Virus genome (UHGV): UHGV-1720524
DNA from: a virus
DNA length: 24,552 nt
Direction: 5' to 3' (one strand)
In this document: positions 4,706-16,584 of the stretch, in pieces
Layout of the letters: every line of letters begins with the position of its first letter
How positions within the stretch are numbered: position 1 is the first letter of the stretch
Notes under the pieces: generated by a model
Database searches by the model: none
Seen by the model: the letters and a program-made list of their open reading frames with translations, nothing else
Told to the model about the DNA's origin: nothing
Made by a program: the position numbers and the translations under genes

Positions 4706-5055
4706 ACCTGGTCTCTCTCATCTGCTTCTGCTTTCGCCACCATCATTTCCAGCTTTTGTGAAAGGGATGCGGCTAACGTGTGAAATTCTTCGTCTGTTTC
4801 TACTGGTATTGGCACAAACCTGACTCCAATTTGAGCGAGGCTATGTGCCATCTCGATACTCGTTCTTAACTCAACGGGAGATGCTTTGTGCATACAGCCC
4901 CCCCATTTATTATTTATCTCCTCAGCCAGCCGCTGTGCTTTCAGGGGATTTCGGATTACAGAAAGGCCGGGAAATACCCAGCCTCGCTTTGTAACGGAGT
5001 AGACGAAAGTGATTGCGCCTACCCGGATATTATCGTGAGGATGCGTCATCGCCAT
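4702..5055 (-). CDS. Hypothetical protein (117 aa) immediately downstream of exo
   Basis: ORF in the position lambda uses for orf60a/orf63; no family recognised. Confidence 0.45.
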
Positions 5056-5726
5056 TGCTCCCCAAATACAAAACCAATTTCAGCCAGTGCCTCGTCCATT
5101 TTTTCGATGAACTCCGGCACCATCTCGTCAAAACTCGCCATGTACTTTTCATTCCGCTCAATCACGACATAATGCAGGCCTTCACGCTTCATGCGCGGGT
5201 CATAGTTGGCAAAGTACCAGGCATCTTTTCGCGTCACCCACATGCTGTACTGCACCTGGGCCATGTAAGCCGATTTTATTGCCTCGAAACCACCGAGCCG
5301 GAATTTCATGAAATCCCGGGAGGTAAACGGGCATTTCAGTTCAAGGCCGTTGCCGTCACTGCATAAACCATCGGGAGAGCAGGCGGTGCGCATATTTTCG
5401 TCGCGATAGATGATCGGGGATTCAGTAATATTCACGCCGGAAGTGAATTCAAACAGGGTTCTGGCGTCGTTCTCGTACTGTTTTCCCCAGGCCAGCGCCT
5501 TAGCATTAACTTCCGGAGCCACACCGGTGCAAACCTCAGCCAGCAGGGTGTGGAAGTAGGACATTTTCATGTCAGGCCACTTCTTTCCTGAGCGGGGCTT
5601 TGCTATCACGTTGTGAACTTCTGAAGCGGTGATGACGCCGAGCCGTAATTTGTGCCATGCATCATCCCCCTGTTCGACAGCTCTCACGTCGATCCCGGTA
5701 CGCTGCAGGATAATGTCCGGTGTCAT
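5046..5726 (-). CDS. exo: Lambda exonuclease (Red-alpha), 226 aa
   Basis: [40 protein letters not shown]...FVFGEQWR matches lambda Exo from memory. Confidence 0.95.
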
Positions 5727-6508
5727 GCTGCCACCTTCTGCTCAGTGGCTTTCTGTTTCAGGAATCCAAGAGCTTTCACTGCTTCGGCCTGTGTCAGTTC
5801 TGACGATGCGCGAATGTCGCGGCGAAATATCTGGGAACAGAGCGGCAATAAGTCGTCATCCCATGTTTTATCCAGGGCGATCAGCAGAGTGTTAATCTCC
5901 TGCATGGTTTCATCGTTAACCGGAGTGATGTCGCGTTCTGGCTGACGTTCTGCAGTGTATGCAGTATTTTCGACAATGCGCTCGGCTTCATCCTTGTCAT
6001 AGATACCAGCAAATCCGAAGGCCAGACGGGCACACTGAATCATGGCTTTATGCCGTAACATCCGTTTGGGATGCGACTGCCACGGCCCCGTGATTTCTCT
6101 GCCTTCGCGAGTTTTGAATGGTTCGCGGCGGCATTCATCCATCCATTCGGTAACGCAGATCGGATGATTACGGTCCTTGCGGTAAATCCGGCATGTACAT
6201 GATTCATTGTCCTGCTCAAAGTCCATGCCATCAAACTGCTGGTTTTCATTGATGATGCGGGACCAGCCATCAACGCCCACCACCGGAACGATGCCGTTCT
6301 GCTTATCAGGGAAGGCGTAAATTTCTTTCGTCCACGGATTAAGGCCGTACTGGTTGGCGACGATCAACAATGCGATGAACTGCGCATCGCTGGCATCACC
6401 TTTAAATGCCGTCTGACGAAGAGTGGTGATCAGTTCCTGTGGGTCGACAGAATCCATGCCGACACGTTCAGCCAGCTTCCCAGCCAGCGTTGCGAGTGCA
6501 GTACTCAT
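5723..6508 (-). CDS. bet: Single-strand annealing protein Bet (Red-beta), 261 aa
   Basis: [66 protein letters not shown]... matches lambda Bet; overlaps the exo start as in lambda. Confidence 0.95.
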
Positions 6509-6513
6509 TCGTT

Positions 6514-6810
6514 TTATACCTCTGAATCAATATCAACCTGATGGTGAGCAATGGTTTCAACCATGTACCGGATGTGTTCCGCCATGCGCTCCTGAAACTC
6601 AACATCGTCATCAAATGCACGGGTAATGGCTTTTTTGCTGGCCCCGTGGCGTTGCAAATGATCGATGCATAGCGATTCAAACAGGTGCTGGGGCAGGCCT
6701 TTTTCCATGTCGTCTGCCAGTTCTGCCTCTTTCTCTTCATGGGCGATCTGCTGGTAGTGACGCGCCCAGCTCTGAGCCTCAAGACGATCCTGAATGTAAT
6801 AAGCGTTCAT
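6514..6810 (-). CDS. gam: RecBCD inhibitor Gam (98-aa GamS form)
   Basis: [60 protein letters not shown]... matches lambda Gam. Confidence 0.93.
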
Positions 6811-6885
6811 GGCTGAACTCCTGAAAATGGCTGTGAAAATATCGCCCGCGAAATGCCAGGCTGATTAGGTAAACAGGAAAGGGGA

Positions 6886-7176
6886 TTAGTGATTCAGACC
6901 GTTGCCGCGCCCGTCGAGAAAAACTTCCACGAGCAAGTCACGGGTATAAGTGCGCTCGATGCCGCGATGCAGATAAAGCCGTCCGCGTAAATTAGCTGAT
7001 GCAGTCCAGGTACCATCTTTGTGTTTGACCAGCATTCCTGGCATGACCGCACCGCGATTAACGGTCTGCGTTCCGTAATGTTGATGAACCATAAAAACTC
7101 CTGCCCGTAAGCTGGGCTGCTGAACATATAAAGACTTCTGCGCGTATTCAGGCGGTGGATGGCCGCCGGTTGTCAT
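6886..7176 (-). CDS. Hypothetical basic protein (96 aa), first gene downstream of pL (kil/cIII/N position); an internal start at MVHQ (7125) with a GGAG Shine-Dalgarno is also possible
   Basis: Longest ORF in the 6811-7200 gap; a 77-aa ORF in another frame (6894-7127) overlaps it, so the true coding frame is uncertain. Confidence 0.35.
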   Translation of the reverse strand: MTTGGHPPPEYAQKSLYVQQPSLRAGVFMVHQHYGTQTVNRGAVMPGMLVKHKDGTWTASANLRGRLYLHRGIERTYTRDLLVEVFLDGRGNGLNH

Positions 7177-7369
7177 AACTAAGCCGCCTCGTTGAAGCGA
7201 CTAAGGTATGAAATGTTGAGTTGATTTCAGCTGGTCACACCGACGTTCACGCGTCCGTTTCATCCCTCGCACTACCCGAAGCCTGCTGAAATTCAAGCTG
7301 CGGATCTAAGCGGTCATCGCAACGGTGAAACAGGTGGTTACCGTATCGTTGTGTCGTTGCGATGAATTT

Positions 7370-7436
7370 ATTTAAAACTATAGTTGTTTTATCGTCAACA
7401 ACAAAAGTTGTTTTATCGGTTGTTTTAAATATAACT
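7370..7436 (-). promoter_or_regulatory. pL promoter with OL operator repeats
   Basis: On the minus strand GTTGTTGACGATAAAACAACTATAGTTTTAAAT (-35 TTGACG, 17-nt spacer, -10 TTAAAT) is nearly identical to the pR module at 9168-9200; surrounded by AACAAC-N4-GTTGTT dyads. Confidence 0.6.
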
Positions 7437-7536
7437 GGTTGTATTTAGGATGGATTTATTTTGTGACTTGCATCGCATAGCGATAACTGAAGTGAGGTCG
7501 TGGTGGTTTTTTGAACGGTGTGTGATGAGGGGAGGG

Positions 7537-7569
7537 CAAAATAAAACCCGGCACGGTGGCCGGGTTTAG
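7537..7569 (-). terminator. Intrinsic terminator ending the immunity-region transcript (tIMM-like)
   Basis: On the minus strand CCCGGC-CACCGT-GCCGGG stem-loop followed by TTTTATTTT, about 75 bp past the stop of the 147-aa gene. Confidence 0.65.
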
Positions 7570-7641
7570 ATGATTGGTTAAGAGCGAGGGTAATGGGGAA
7601 TGAAAAATCGCTTTACCTAATGCAAGGGTGCGAGCATTTTC

Positions 7642-8085
7642 TTAAGCACTAAAGAAAAAGTACATTGATAGCTTATAAAGTCCTGTTCCTGCAGCGATGA
7701 TTGCTGGAACACCAAGCAATACCGCAAGCTTTGCGTCTGAAATCTTTCTATCGACAGCATCACTTGATGGCTTGTTTGTTAAGGATTCTTTTATAGAGTC
7801 CAGACGTGCAAGAATAGTTATCATATTTTTGTCGATAGCTTTAACGTCTGTTTTAAGTTCATCAACGTCTCGTTTGATATGAGCAACATCGGACTCCAGT
7901 TTTGCAACTTTTTCAGGCATGTTATCACTCCCAGACCCACTGCTACCACTTGATTGTAGCATGTCCCATCTTTTTCCAGATATACCTGCTAGCTGGGAAG
8001 ACGCACTGGAGTGCAAACAAAATGATTTTGCCGCCTTTGCAATTTTATCATTTAGGTTTGGAGCTTCGTAATAATCGTGTTTCAT
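7642..8085 (-). CDS. Coiled-coil protein with C-terminal transmembrane helix (147 aa; XhlA-like architecture), distal gene of the repressor-linked moron
   Basis: Long ORF in very AT-rich DNA; heptad-like KLESDVAHIKRDVDELKTDVKAIDKNMITILARLDSIKESL followed by hydrophobic LAVLLGVPAIIAAGTGLYKL; occupies the rexB-equivalent position. Confidence 0.55.
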   Translation of the reverse strand: MKHDYYEAPNLNDKIAKAAKSFCLHSSASSQLAGISGKRWDMLQSSGSSGSGSDNMPEKVAKLESDVAHIKRDVDELKTDVKAIDKNMITILARLDSIKESLTNKPSSDAVDRKISDAKLAVLLGVPAIIAAGTGLYKLSMYFFFSA

Positions 8086-8097
8086 AATTAATTACGA

Positions 8098-8361
8098 TTA
8101 GTTTGTTTTAGCTTTGTCATGCTGGTCGCGAATGAAGTCAGCCAATTTAAGCATCAATTCTTCGGGCATTCTAATGGTTGCAATGTTGTACTTTATGTTC
8201 TCAACATCGTCACTTTCATCAACAGGCCATTCAGTTACATTATGAAAAAAAGAAATTGAACCTAGGCGCTGAGAGCCGTCACCAAACGAAGAGTAGCCAA
8301 ACGCGTCGGCGTATGCATCGACACAGTTATTTGATTTTTTAACAAGTGTTTTATTACTCAT
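8098..8361 (-). CDS. Small protein (87 aa) with C-terminal ribbon-helix-helix-like segment, proximal gene of the repressor-linked moron
   Basis: ORF with GGAAAGG Shine-Dalgarno, 82 bp downstream of the repressor stop; YNIATIRMPEELMLKLADFIRDQ resembles a beta-strand/helix RHH motif; AT-rich. Confidence 0.5.
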   Translation of the reverse strand: MSNKTLVKKSNNCVDAYADAFGYSSFGDGSQRLGSISFFHNVTEWPVDESDDVENIKYNIATIRMPEELMLKLADFIRDQHDKAKTN

Positions 8362-8443
8362 TTTTTGCCTTTCCCGTAATGTTATTTTTTATAAGGTATT
8401 TTCTTCAGCGTATTACCCAAAAGCCTCATCAACACGCGGCTGA

Positions 8444-9133
8444 TTATCCGTGTTTTCTGTACGTCTGCGGCATGCTCCCAATAACCTTACCGAATATGAA
8501 TACCCGGTTCATCTCGTCTTTCTCGATCGGGTCCCACGGTGAGTAGCTCTTGTTATCAGAGATAACCAGTAGCTTATCCTTCATCATTTGCAGGCGCTTT
8601 ACATGGGCGGTGTCGTCATACAGAAACGCATAGATGCCATCACCGTCGAAAGATTTAACAGTGATATCAACGAACAGCAGGTCACCTGGTTCGATCGTCC
8701 CTGACATGCTGTCACCTCGCACGTTAATGATGCGGATATTTTCCGCCTTCCTGCCATCGAACATGTGACGAGCATCGTCAAACGAGTACTCAACCGAGCG
8801 TAGAACTTCTACAAACTCACGGTTGATTACACCTGGCCCGGCACTGACTTCTATATCAAGAACGTCAATTTTGAAGTATTTGGAATGGCTGACAGTTGAT
8901 TGTATTGGTTGCACTGTACTGTCTGACATATTTCCAACGCCAGAAGATAACCATTCTGCGCGTACACCCAAAGCGTTCGCGATCTCCACGATTTTAGTTG
9001 TTTGGTTAGCTTTCCCTGTTTCGATTTTCTGAATAGCAGCCTGGCTAACCCCGACCAAATCCCCAAGCGCCTTTTGTGTAAGGCCTCGCGCTAATCTGGC
9101 TTCTTTAAGTCTTTCTGAGAGTGTTGTTTTCAT
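8444..9133 (-). CDS. CI-type prophage repressor (N-terminal HTH, C-terminal LexA/S24-like autopeptidase domain), 229 aa
   Basis: N-terminal LTQKALGDLVGVSQAAIQKIETGK (HTH_XRE-like); C-terminal NVRGDSMSGTIEPGDLLFVD...VKRL matches the S24 Ser/Lys dyad context; divergent from a Cro-like gene across an operator region. Confidence 0.85.
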   Translation of the reverse strand: MKTTLSERLKEARLARGLTQKALGDLVGVSQAAIQKIETGKANQTTKIVEIANALGVRAEWLSSGVGNMSDSTVQPIQSTVSHSKYFKIDVLDIEVSAGPGVINREFVEVLRSVEYSFDDARHMFDGRKAENIRIINVRGDSMSGTIEPGDLLFVDITVKSFDGDGIYAFLYDDTAHVKRLQMMKDKLLVISDNKSYSPWDPIEKDEMNRVFIFGKVIGSMPQTYRKHG

Positions 9134-9139
9134 AGATCA

Positions 9140-9210
9140 AATGTACAACCAAGGTTTTATTTCATCAAACGAAAATGGTTGTTGACTAAAAACAACCATA
9201 GTTTTAATCT
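9140..9210 (+). promoter_or_regulatory. OR operators with pR (and divergent pRM) region
   Basis: TTGACT at 9172-9177, 17-nt spacer, TAATCT at 9195-9200; 9-bp inverted repeat ATGGTTGTT / AACAACCAT overlapping the promoter; sits between the divergent repressor and cro-like genes. Confidence 0.6.
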
Positions 9211-9237
9211 TGATTCGGATTAACCACGGAGGTTGTT

Positions 9238-9468
9238 ATGAACCCAGCAATCAAAACAGCGATCAATATCGTTGGTTCACAAAAGAAACTAGGCGATGCC
9301 TGCGAAGTTTCACAGCAGGCCGTCTATAAGTGGCTTCACAACAAAGCAAAGGTATCCCCTGAACATGTCGGCAGCATTGTTACGGCTACTGGTGGAGTTG
9401 TGAAGGCATACCAGATTCGCCCGGATCTTCCGAAGTTGTTTCCACACACCGAAAAGAACGCAGCTTAA
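9238..9468 (+). CDS. Cro-like HTH regulator of the YdaS family (76 aa)
   Basis: VGSQKKLGDACEVSQQAVYKWLHNK...IRPDL resembles Rac YdaS / Cro-type HTH proteins as recalled; GGAGG Shine-Dalgarno; first gene after pR. Confidence 0.7.
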   Translation: MNPAIKTAINIVGSQKKLGDACEVSQQAVYKWLHNKAKVSPEHVGSIVTATGGVVKAYQIRPDLPKLFPHTEKNAA

Positions 9469-9490
9469 ATTTCCATTTCACGCTCTTTAA

Positions 9491-9499
9491 CAATAAGCA
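9491..9499 (+). promoter_or_regulatory. boxA-like element (CGCTCTTTA) in the nutR position
   Basis: 9-mer matching the lambdoid boxA consensus CGCTCTT(T)A, located between cro and the cII-position gene; no obvious boxB hairpin nearby. Confidence 0.35.
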
Positions 9500-9537
9500 A
9501 TCAACTTAACAGTCAATTCAAACTAAAGGAGTCAATT

Positions 9538-10077
9538 ATGCAACCACTTACATACCAACAGACTAGCGGATTTATTCCGACTGCGGTGATAAATCGTTCT
9601 CAAACAAAACAAGCTCCAGGCCACGAAAAAATCCGTGATGCCGTCCGCGCCTGGTCGGCTGTAGATAATCAGGATGTCGTTGCCGCACTCATTGTGAATG
9701 AGTATCGGGAGCAGGGCGACGGCACCATCGATTTCCCTGATGATGTCAGCCGTGCACGCCAGAAGCTGTTCCGCTTCCTCGATAACAAATTCGATTCTGA
9801 AAAATACCGAAATAACGTGCGTGAACTGACCCCGGCAATTCTGGCGGTACTACCGCTGGAATATCGCGGTTACCTGGTTGAGCAGGATAGCTTCATGACT
9901 CGGTTGGCTGAAATGGAAAAGGAACTCAGTGAGGCAAAACAGGCTGTCATTCTCAACGCACCACGCCACCAGAAACTGAAGGAAATGAGTGAAGGTATTG
10001 TGTCGATGTTTCGTGTGGACCCGGATCTGGCTGGTCCATTAATGGCGATGGTGACCACCATGCTGGGGGCAATATGA
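9538..10077 (+). CDS. YdaT-like protein in the cII position (179 aa)
   Basis: LTPAILAVLPLEYRGYL and surrounding region resemble Rac YdaT (LIPAILAILPRELRHRL) as recalled; good Shine-Dalgarno (AAGGAG). Confidence 0.55.
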   Translation: MQPLTYQQTSGFIPTAVINRSQTKQAPGHEKIRDAVRAWSAVDNQDVVAALIVNEYREQGDGTIDFPDDVSRARQKLFRFLDNKFDSEKYRNNVRELTPAILAVLPLEYRGYLVEQDSFMTRLAEMEKELSEAKQAVILNAPRHQKLKEMSEGIVSMFRVDPDLAGPLMAMVTTMLGAI

Positions 10078-13964: not shown

Positions 13965-13987
13965 CGCGGAAACTTTGAAGGTATAAT

Positions 13988-14013
13988 CCCCTCAAATAAT
14001 CGAGGGGGTTTTT
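13988..14013 (+). terminator. Hairpin plus T-run directly upstream of the moron ATG (terminator and/or Shine-Dalgarno-sequestering structure)
   Basis: CCCCTC-AAATAATC-GAGGGG followed by GTTTTT and then ATG at 14014; the 3' arm GAGGGGG is also the only Shine-Dalgarno for that gene; TATAAT at 13982-13987 sits just upstream. Confidence 0.45.
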
Positions 14014-16115: not shown

Positions 16116-16200
16116 AGTCAGAGATAACAATCAACTAATACTGTTTTGTTGATTTTTGCTTGTAATTGGCGTTCTGGTCTGAGTTTTGTGGAGTAAGTTG

Positions 16201-16584
16201 ATGCGTGATATTCAGATGGTTCTTGAGCGTTGGGGAGCGTGGGCGGCTAATAATCATGAAGATGTGACCTGGTCGTCCATTGCCGCCGGTTTTAAGGGAT
16301 TAATTCCTTCAAAAGTAAAATCTCGCCCACAATGTTGTGACGATGACGCGATGATCATTTGCGGGTGCATGGCCCGTCTGAAAAAGAACAACAGCGATTT
16401 GCACGATTTATTAGTAGATTATTATGTAGTCGGTATGACATTCATGTCACTGGCAGGTAAGCATTGCTGCTCTGATGGTTATATCGGGAAAAGGTTACAA
16501 AAGGCTGAGGGCATAATTGAAGGGATGTTAATGGCATTAGATATCCGGTTAGAGATGGATATCGTTGTTAATAACTCTAATTAA
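16201..16584 (+). CDS. quuD: Late-gene antiterminator Q (QuuD/phage 82 type), 127 aa from [11 protein letters not shown]
   Basis: [71 protein letters not shown]... matches DLP12 QuuD as recalled; the track ORF starts 15 nt earlier. Confidence 0.85.

Follow-up and report, generated by a model that had tools for sequence, protein, structure and literature searches.

We analysed a 24,552-nucleotide (nt) stretch of DNA from the UHGV virus genome UHGV-1720524, referred to here at its full length as the window, and focused on the transcribed region between the early leftward promoter pL and the first gene that it serves. The map of open reading frames (ORFs), together with family scans against Pfam and PHROGs, identifies the window as an E. 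coli lambda-like prophage, a lambdoid prophage of a very common type. Four identities at this locus are secure: pL with its operator oL, a long leader behind it, Kil as the product of the first gene, and the absence of both an N gene and a put RNA. The leader is a mosaic of a 5' hairpin (hairpin A), a lineage-specific G-rich core, a C-rich tract, and a shared element that consists of a hairpin and an invariant block and is called element (d) below (Table 1).

The pL and pR promoter-operator modules are near-identical, as a first-pass annotation of this DNA had noticed; read against each other, they stand one indel and four substitutions apart, and operator and -35 hexamer are almost the same in both. 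The AACAAC/GTTGTT dyads that it had placed at both modules were also recovered, and a separate inverted-repeat check confirmed them. The pattern GTTGT-N(5-11)-ACAAC is found at exactly two sites in the 24.5-kb window, 7383-7402 and 9178-9196, where 0.15 would be expected by chance. Earlier coordinates for pR, for a boxA site and for an inverted repeat in the leader were each about 10 bases off, and the pR module, formerly given as 9168-9200, lies at 9178-9209. The hexamer TATAGT was rejected as the -10 of pL because only 10 base pairs (bp) separate it from the -35 TTGACG. Given a 17-bp spacer, the -10 would be TTAAAT (7375-7370), and this spacing, together with the place where phages of different immunity types start to be homologous, would put the transcription start (+1) near A7363.

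The first ORF downstream of pL, 96 amino acids (aa) long, had been described as belonging to no known family, and a homology search now gives it one. It matches phrog_294 ('Kil protein for bacterial septation inhibition') in PHROGs over residues 20-96 with E = 1.2e-38, without a Pfam match, and over its last 68 aa it can be aligned to Rac KilR at 36% identity (BLASTP, E = 9e-13), Met1 on Met1. The annotated protein of the RefSeq phage 4A7 consists of just those last 68 aa, and near-identical genes carry a Kil annotation in 4A7, the PhiR phages and Perceval. By homology, the ORF is thus a Kil of the KilR-type family with an in-frame extension. The same phrog_294 match and Met1-to-Met1 alignment, with the lack of an arginine-rich motif, refute the earlier suggestion that it encodes a divergent N. 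The internal ATG at 7092 is preceded by AGGAG 5 nt upstream, and the ATG at 7176 is without a Shine-Dalgarno sequence and abuts a stable conserved hairpin; the true start of kil is probably ATG 7092, giving 68 aa, and the extension from ATG 7176 is probably not translated. Because kil would start at 7092 and not at 7176, the untranslated leader extends over about 270 nt (7363 to 7093) rather than the 186 nt first proposed. Inhibition of cell division by this Kil would be a function taken over from studies of Rac KilR (PMC5793797, PMC12482147).

Structure prediction agrees with the description of the leader as structured, with a folding z of -2.8 for the whole leader against shuffles; the 51-nt hairpin A at its 5' end reaches -14.7 kcal/mol and z = -3.4, and 0 of 200 shuffles were as good. 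The 10-bp inverted repeat CATCGCAACG/CGTTGCGATG that the first-pass annotation had seen does exist, with its plus-strand arms at 7315-7324 and 7355-7364 instead of within 7303-7352. In most relatives the stem measures 9 bp from the inferred +1 (7363) and encloses a C/A-rich loop of about 30 nt. The repeat is conserved among relatives: the stem is kept in three immunity types, with changes that are one-sided and compatible with pairing (CG/UG 14:14, AU/GU 19:9), and in the type C loci L051 and L119 the 30-nt loop has been replaced with 8 of the 9 stem pairs kept. Hairpin A showed no two-sided compensatory changes.

The G-rich core, 88 nt with a G content of 37-45%, has a structure that is a prediction only. 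We compared its variability with that of neighbouring sites in 29 homologous sequences, from which three divergent kil/gam alleles that inflate diversity had been removed. Nine of 73 sites are variable in the core segment 7298-7226 (12%), compared with 49 of 166 third-codon sites of kil and gam (30%; Fisher p = 0.005) and 22 of 75 sites of the kil-gam spacer (29%; p = 0.015), and the nucleotide diversity of the core, 0.032, is only modestly below the 0.050 of third-codon sites. The lower count of variable sites is moderate evidence that the core is under constraint. A switch in which the core would pair with the invariant block downstream was rejected, with 76 of 500 shuffles as good.

Across the 150-nt segment that extends from +1 to element (d) (7363-7213), every change in the predicted stems is one-sided and compatible with pairing; the segment lacks a covariation signal because the sequences, at most 7% diverged, are too similar. 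Homologues below 93% identity, sought for covariation, were not found by distant blastn of phage records, in IMG/VR, or among genomes representing one species each. A 19-mer search of the latter set returned only unrelated high-GC genomes, by chance, and no enterobacterial species representative. Between the core and element (d), the C-rich tract contains 30% C and 10% G in 40-nt windows and is unpaired in the predicted folds, and three relatives carry a 5-nt UCAAC duplication within it. It is possible that this tract is a Rho entry site.

Covariance analysis across relatives, which gave no two-sided change in the 150-nt segment, did support the hairpin at 7206-7180, and element (d) is accordingly the strongly supported and best-supported structure of the leader. 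Among 25 distinct variants, compensatory changes on both sides occur in 7 of the 8 scored pairs, and pairing is kept in 94.5% of cells; in controls, slid versions reached at most 55% pairing, and none of 500 shuffles attained the covariation score. The hairpin folds with z = -3.1; in its general form it has 11-12 bp and ends in a loop of three or four nt (UUC-NNN-GAG or UU-UNCG-AG). A 23-mer of the invariant block has at least 120 exact matches in IMG/VR. Depending on the phage, element (d) comes after a tL1-type terminator, after putL, or after a leader of the window's type; the first arrangement is seen in phi80, HK639, HK225 and dozens of IMG/VR phages. Its motif GCGCAGAAGUCUU occurs in all three frames relative to the AUG across phages, so conservation acts at the nucleotide level. 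In HK639 and in loci L026, L082 and L111 a U run follows the second hairpin, which the HK639 annotation labels a terminator. Element (d) also opens a short ORF, MTTGGHPPP..., with a conserved start and a variable tail. Element (d) is a well-supported candidate for a new RNA motif at the head of kil modules across lambdoid phages.

We then considered whether a known antitermination system is present. No match to an N family was found in PHROGs or Pfam among the early-operon ORFs, and a scan of all ORFs of at least 35 aa for an N-terminal arginine-rich motif returned only out-of-frame fragments within other genes; the earlier statement that no N-like ORF follows pL thus holds, and no bona fide N came to light elsewhere in the prophage. 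For put, a two-stem RNA with a conserved GAACGGC...GUCGG...GGAUGA...CAAU core, we used a covariance model (R1) of 15 put RNAs from HK022, HK639 and IMG/VR, containing 16 pairs of which 9 have compensatory changes, as a sequence-plus-structure profile searched with filters off. Two loci outside the training set served as positive controls and scored 89.6 bits (L016) and 86.4 bits (L019). The best hit in the window had E = 0.9 at 6370-6408, with none in the leader and none after cro, and the model gave no hit in L001, L051 and L119, three loci that carry the leader; a put RNA of the HK022/HK639 type is thereby excluded for the leader. Of the RNA-based mechanism that the first-pass annotation had offered as an alternative to N, this put form consequently falls away; the general idea survives only in a form unlike that of HK022, and would fit the leader's start at the inferred +1, its few variable sites and its occupation of the putL position in relatives.

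Other searches for known or repeated RNAs were also negative. Rfam 15 gave 0 matches over the whole window at the gathering threshold, and its E-value mode over 6800-9700 gave only sub-threshold, chance-like hits, the best being isrJ on the terminator at 7543-7624 (21 bits against 37). The 'M3-like RNA' of HK639 shares only chance 9-11-mers with the window, and blastn-short and nhmmer --max (E > 9) found no second copy of the leader in the window or its relatives. A 15-mer, CGCAGCTTRAATTTC, and a 13-mer, AATCAACTYAACA, are common to the leader and the cro-ydaT spacer; they were rejected as a repeated site, and as the sharing is seen only with immunity type A and not with types B and C, which have the same leader, it is treated as chance or type-specific.

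Of 5426 complete E. coli genomes, 2210 (41%) carry the leader, which is 95-99% identical in 16 sequenced phages, including Bievrevirus 4A7 and 4C10, Perceval and the PhiR series. In IMG/VR, 44 of the 124 loci with the downstream 23-mer carry the leader segment at 93-100% identity, and all copies lie in E. coli prophages. Its neighbours include at least three different immunity regions, and in two immunity types the homology between phages begins at the inferred +1. The window has the order pL, 150-nt leader, element (d), kil, gam, bet, and loci L016 and L019 have the order pL, putL, element (d), kil, gam, recT; in these loci putL thus occupies exactly the place of the window's 150-nt segment. 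Put and leader never occur together, with put in 0 of 34 leader loci compared with 19 of 66 other loci.

On the rightward side, the boxA-like site that had been reported downstream of cro proved to be a perfect consensus match, at 9481-9493 and not at 9491-9499. Its sequence CGCTCTTTAACAA matches the rrn-type consensus YGCTCTTTAACAA exactly, and 9482-9492 matches the gamma-proteobacterial consensus GYTCTTTAANA exactly (PMC5725501). The site lies 45 nt upstream of a start codon in a cro-ydaT spacer (9469-9537) with 25% C and 5-10% G that appears unstructured, the 86 nt around boxA folding at -3.7 kcal/mol (z = +0.95), and this fold contains no boxB next to the boxA. It is the only boxA, with none in the pL leader, and it is found only with the window's immunity type. 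A lambda-like boxA, CGCTCTTAACCAA (7574-7586, minus strand), has two mismatches to the rrn consensus and immediately precedes the terminator 7567-7544; being upstream of pL, it is not part of the pL transcript, and it is at chance level (1.25 such matches expected per window). The cro-ydaT spacer looks like a boxA-only Nus-factor site in a Rho-dependent, tR1-like setting. Its exact GYTCTTTAANA match in an unstructured transcript brings it close to the boxA-only sites of rrn leaders, suhB and CRISPR arrays, whereas the window's site belongs to a phage early-right operon and to one immunity type only. The N/Nus system of lambda likewise has a consensus boxA downstream of cro, within a spacer that is rich in C and tR1-like, and the lambda pL leader (nutL plus the RNase III-sensitive N leader) resembles the window's in being a long structured 5' leader in a phage with terminators in both early operons. 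Unlike lambda, the window has no N, no boxA in the pL leader, no boxB at the right-hand boxA, and kil as its first gene.

Table 1 Features of the window and of related loci (coordinates are those of the window unless a locus is named)
Feature	Position	Strand	Remarks
int	163-1233	minus	
xis	between int and exo		
Early-left terminators	4389-4371, 1706-1687, 1479-1460	minus	
exo	5046-5726	minus	
bet	5723-6508	minus	
gam	6514-6810	minus	
kil, 68 aa	6886-7092	minus	KilR-type FtsZ inhibitor (by homology); within listed 96-aa ORF 6886-7176
Element (d)	7211-7131	minus	CAUACC, hairpin, invariant block, motif
Conserved CAUACC	7211-7206	minus	
Covariation-supported hairpin	7180-7206	minus	
Invariant block with the motif that follows it	7131-7179	minus	UUAUGACAACCGGCGGCCAUCCACCGCC, with second hairpin GGCGG/CCGCC (7168-7152)
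Motif GCGCAGAAGUCUU	7143-7131	minus	3' of invariant block
Micro-ORF	7203-7262	minus	MKRTRERRCDQLKSTQHFIP; start ATG 7262
C-rich, G-poor unstructured tract	7207-7243	minus	AAAUCAACUCAACAUUUCAUACC; candidate Rho entry site
G-rich core, lineage-specific	7226-7313	minus	predicted hairpin B (7302-7267) and small hairpin GACG/CGUC
Hairpin A, 5'-terminal stem-loop of pL transcript	7315-7364	minus	stem AUCGCAACG/CGUUGCGAU
oL/pL module	7370-7402	minus	7402 to 7370 = GTTGTTGACGATAAAACAACTATAGTTTTAAAT
oL dyad GTTGTT-N8-AACAAC	7383-7402	minus	overlaps -35 TTGACG (7398-7393)
Additional GTTGTT half-sites near pL	7407-7412, 7419-7424		
Intrinsic terminator of cI-moron operon	7544-7567	minus	just upstream of pL; terminator scan: 9-bp stem, 6 GC pairs, U run
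Two morons	7642-8085, 8098-8361	minus	
CI-type repressor	8444-9133	minus	helix-turn-helix and S24 peptidase (Pfam HTH_3, Peptidase_S24)
oR/pR module	9175-9209	plus	9178-9209 = GTTGTTGACTAAAAACAACCATAGTTTTAATC
oR dyad ATGGTTGTT-N7-AACAACCAT	9175-9199	plus	overlaps -35 TTGACT (9182-9187)
cro, YdaS family	9238-9468	plus	Pfam, PHROGs
boxA CGCUCUUUAACAA	9481-9493	plus	cro-ydaT spacer; without adjacent boxB hairpin
CII-like gene, YdaT family	9538-10077	plus	Pfam, PHROGs
Early-right terminator	13985-14010	plus	
O, P, nin region, Q, then lysis and packaging genes	right side of window; Q 16186-16584		
Further copies of element (d)	L003 3990-4060; L004 2500-2570; L016 6240-6330		

The terminator scan also bears on how the leader relates to its surroundings. 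Since an intrinsic terminator closes the cI-moron operon shortly before pL, the leader is confirmed not to be a continuation of the cI transcript. Strong intrinsic-terminator-like hairpins lie in sense orientation inside both early operons, one of them immediately ahead of xis and another within the nin region, ahead of Q, and elongation control is expected to be needed because these terminators lie further down both operons. The two morons between cI and pL on the minus strand (7642-8361) sit at the position of rexAB and would share expression with the repressor; the 147-aa product (phrog_3556) has a coiled coil and a C-terminal hydrophobic segment, and the 87-aa product belongs to phrog_4231. 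Relatives have other genes at this position, hence the distance from pL to cI is variable.

The interpretation that we favour, at about even chances, is that the leader acts in cis to control both the elongation and the stability of the kil operon transcript. Transcription from pL would run from about 7363 through the roughly 270-nt leader into kil (ATG 7092) and on into gam, bet and exo, and the leader would gate the toxic Kil together with the recombination and excision genes behind it. The 5' hairpin may protect the 5' end from 5'-end-dependent decay; 5'-terminal stem-loops have a stabilising effect, and a stem at +1 fits this. The conserved core and the shared hairpin element may modulate read-through, and the C-rich tract, which in its position behind a structured core fits a Rho entry site, may serve as a Rho loading site comparable to the silencing of Rac kilR by Rho and NusG. 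That kilR of Rac is held in check through NusG/Rho (PMC5793797) provides a precedent for the control of kil. The Rac kilR region further resembles the window in that a homologous toxin gene lies behind a long non-coding region and that its cro and cII genes are of the YdaS/YdaT type; unlike the window's kil, kilR is not adjacent to a repressor-controlled promoter. RefSeq annotates a small RNA (sRNA), KilS, about 175 nt upstream of kilR (L246 2406-2503, E. coli K-12 Rac). KilS is a precedent for non-coding RNAs upstream of kil genes, and no sequence of the Rac upstream region or of KilS is shared with the window's leader or element (d).

Several observations weigh against a control region of this kind. 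The nucleotide diversity of the core is close to the 0.036 of the kil-gam spacer, and the count of variable sites alone differs; the 150-nt segment shows no two-sided compensatory change, and its structure is predicted only. The C-rich tract is the least conserved part of the leader and contains indels, and it is from sequence that we infer the pL start, Rho loading and 5'-end protection. Lastly, an attenuator alone would leave the passage of the downstream intrinsic terminators unexplained.

We regard it as possible, if on present evidence unlikely, that a new class of processive antiterminator RNA, acting in cis, is formed by the 150-nt segment (7363-7213) and above all by its G-rich core. 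Such an RNA would stand in for putL in N-less phages, modifying the RNA polymerase from which it emerges without having any sequence similarity to put. Put RNAs act in cis to cause terminator read-through that depends on the zinc-binding domain of the RNA polymerase beta' subunit. The leader shares with putL and putR of HK022 and the putL-like RNA of HK639 that it is a non-coding, GC-rich, structured RNA directly after pL in a phage without N, and the same element (d) and kil module follow putL in L016 and L019 as follow the leader in the window. That putL occupies the position of the 150-nt leader in those loci, that the two are mutually exclusive in the survey above, and that plaque-forming phages with the leader (4A7, 4C10, Perceval and the PhiR series) have no annotated N all speak for such a role, as do the intrinsic terminators downstream in both early operons and the fact that the element begins at +1 and has few variable sites. 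On the other hand, the leader, known here from sequence only, gives no covariance-model match to put, is present in a single copy, lacks a right-operon counterpart, and does not match the M3-like RNA of HK639. In type B phages the gap from cro to the CII-like gene measures only about 30 nt, with no obvious right-hand site, the 150-nt segment lacks covariation support, and positional replacement may reflect mosaic exchange at a module boundary. The missing second copy is not decisive, however, since in HK639 the left and right RNAs are themselves unrelated: the 'M3-like RNA' (L245 1011-1070), in the right operon after the CII-like gene, is unlike the putL-like RNA on the left. Stated more broadly, that the 150-nt leader, and especially the core 7313-7226, is a third solution to early antitermination, a cis-acting RNA unrelated to put in sequence that would let RNA polymerase resist the early-left terminators, we consider doubtful; the doubt extends equally to the joint proposition that element (d), whether behind leader, putL or tL1, would be a further and separately conserved RNA signal of the kil module.

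A quite improbable alternative is that the loop of hairpin A binds the host sRNA GcvB, making the pL leader either a sponge in the manner of AgvB or a target controlled by GcvB and Hfq. In most relatives CAACAACACAAC at +5 to +16 (7348-7359, minus strand) is perfectly complementary over 12 nt to nt 72-83 of GcvB, its R1 seed, a length that 0 of 300 dinucleotide shuffles reach; it includes the GcvB target consensus CACAAC(A) and resembles the AgvB seed AACACAACAAUAUC (PMC4104026). The search was post hoc, however, and the site is partly in the stem; the window's own copy has an A-to-G change that substitutes one G.U for an A-U pair and leaves 7 contiguous Watson-Crick pairs, and type C relatives have replaced the loop altogether. 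Repression of pL in lysogens limits a role as a sponge, and 250 nt separate the site from the kil start. AgvB-type anti-sRNAs likewise place a C/A-rich complement of the GcvB R1 seed close to where a prophage transcript begins. AgvB itself, an sRNA of 51-60 nt encoded downstream of pR', has its own terminator and is expressed in lysogens (PMC4104026), unlike the window's site, which is the loop of a leader hairpin in an mRNA that the repressor controls. An identification of the leader as AgvB itself was rejected, AgvB being downstream of pR' and having a different conserved 3' part.

We would assign similarly little probability to the idea that the 150-nt segment has no function of its own and is a young homology block, carried along with kil-gam-bet-exo through recombination at the boundary of the promoter. 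Its copies share at least 93% identity and all lie in E. coli prophages, with no match in any enterobacterial species representative, a diversity like that of the kil-gam spacer, and no covariation, as such a block would have. It also has significantly fewer variable sites than the silent and spacer sites of the same sequences, in two immunity types its boundary coincides exactly with +1, the stem is kept where the loop has been replaced, and its predicted folding is stronger than that of shuffles; these four properties count against passive carriage.

That the 96-aa ORF or the micro-ORF MKRTRERRCDQLKSTQHFIP (ATG 7262) encodes a divergent N-like antiterminator is very improbable: the micro-ORF does open with an arginine-rich KRTRERR reminiscent of the N RNA-binding motif, and in many relatives its stop is replaced by CAG so that the frame continues into kil, but the 96-aa ORF is assigned to Kil, most relatives have GTG in place of the ATG of the micro-ORF, abutted by a Shine-Dalgarno sequence, an in-frame TAG is present in the window, a 5-nt insertion breaks the frame in three relatives, no boxB hairpin stands beside the boxA, and silent positions in the arginine-rich part are invariant, which argues for constraint at the nucleotide level. 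With start codon, stop codon and frame not conserved, the micro-ORF was rejected as a gene and is probably not coding.

Early antitermination is the textbook switch of lambdoid development, and to our knowledge only two solutions to it have been described, N with its nut sites and the put RNA. The window and its relatives represent viable phages and very common E. coli prophages with neither of these, yet with terminators in both early operons. Exactly at the place usually taken by N and nutL or by putL they have a constrained non-coding leader, and whether it allows read-through is directly testable. As the first gene behind the leader encodes a cell-division toxin, the leader is relevant to the silence of kil in lysogens. 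If the leader were indeed a third solution to antitermination, about 40% of the E. coli genomes sequenced would contain a prophage with that solution.

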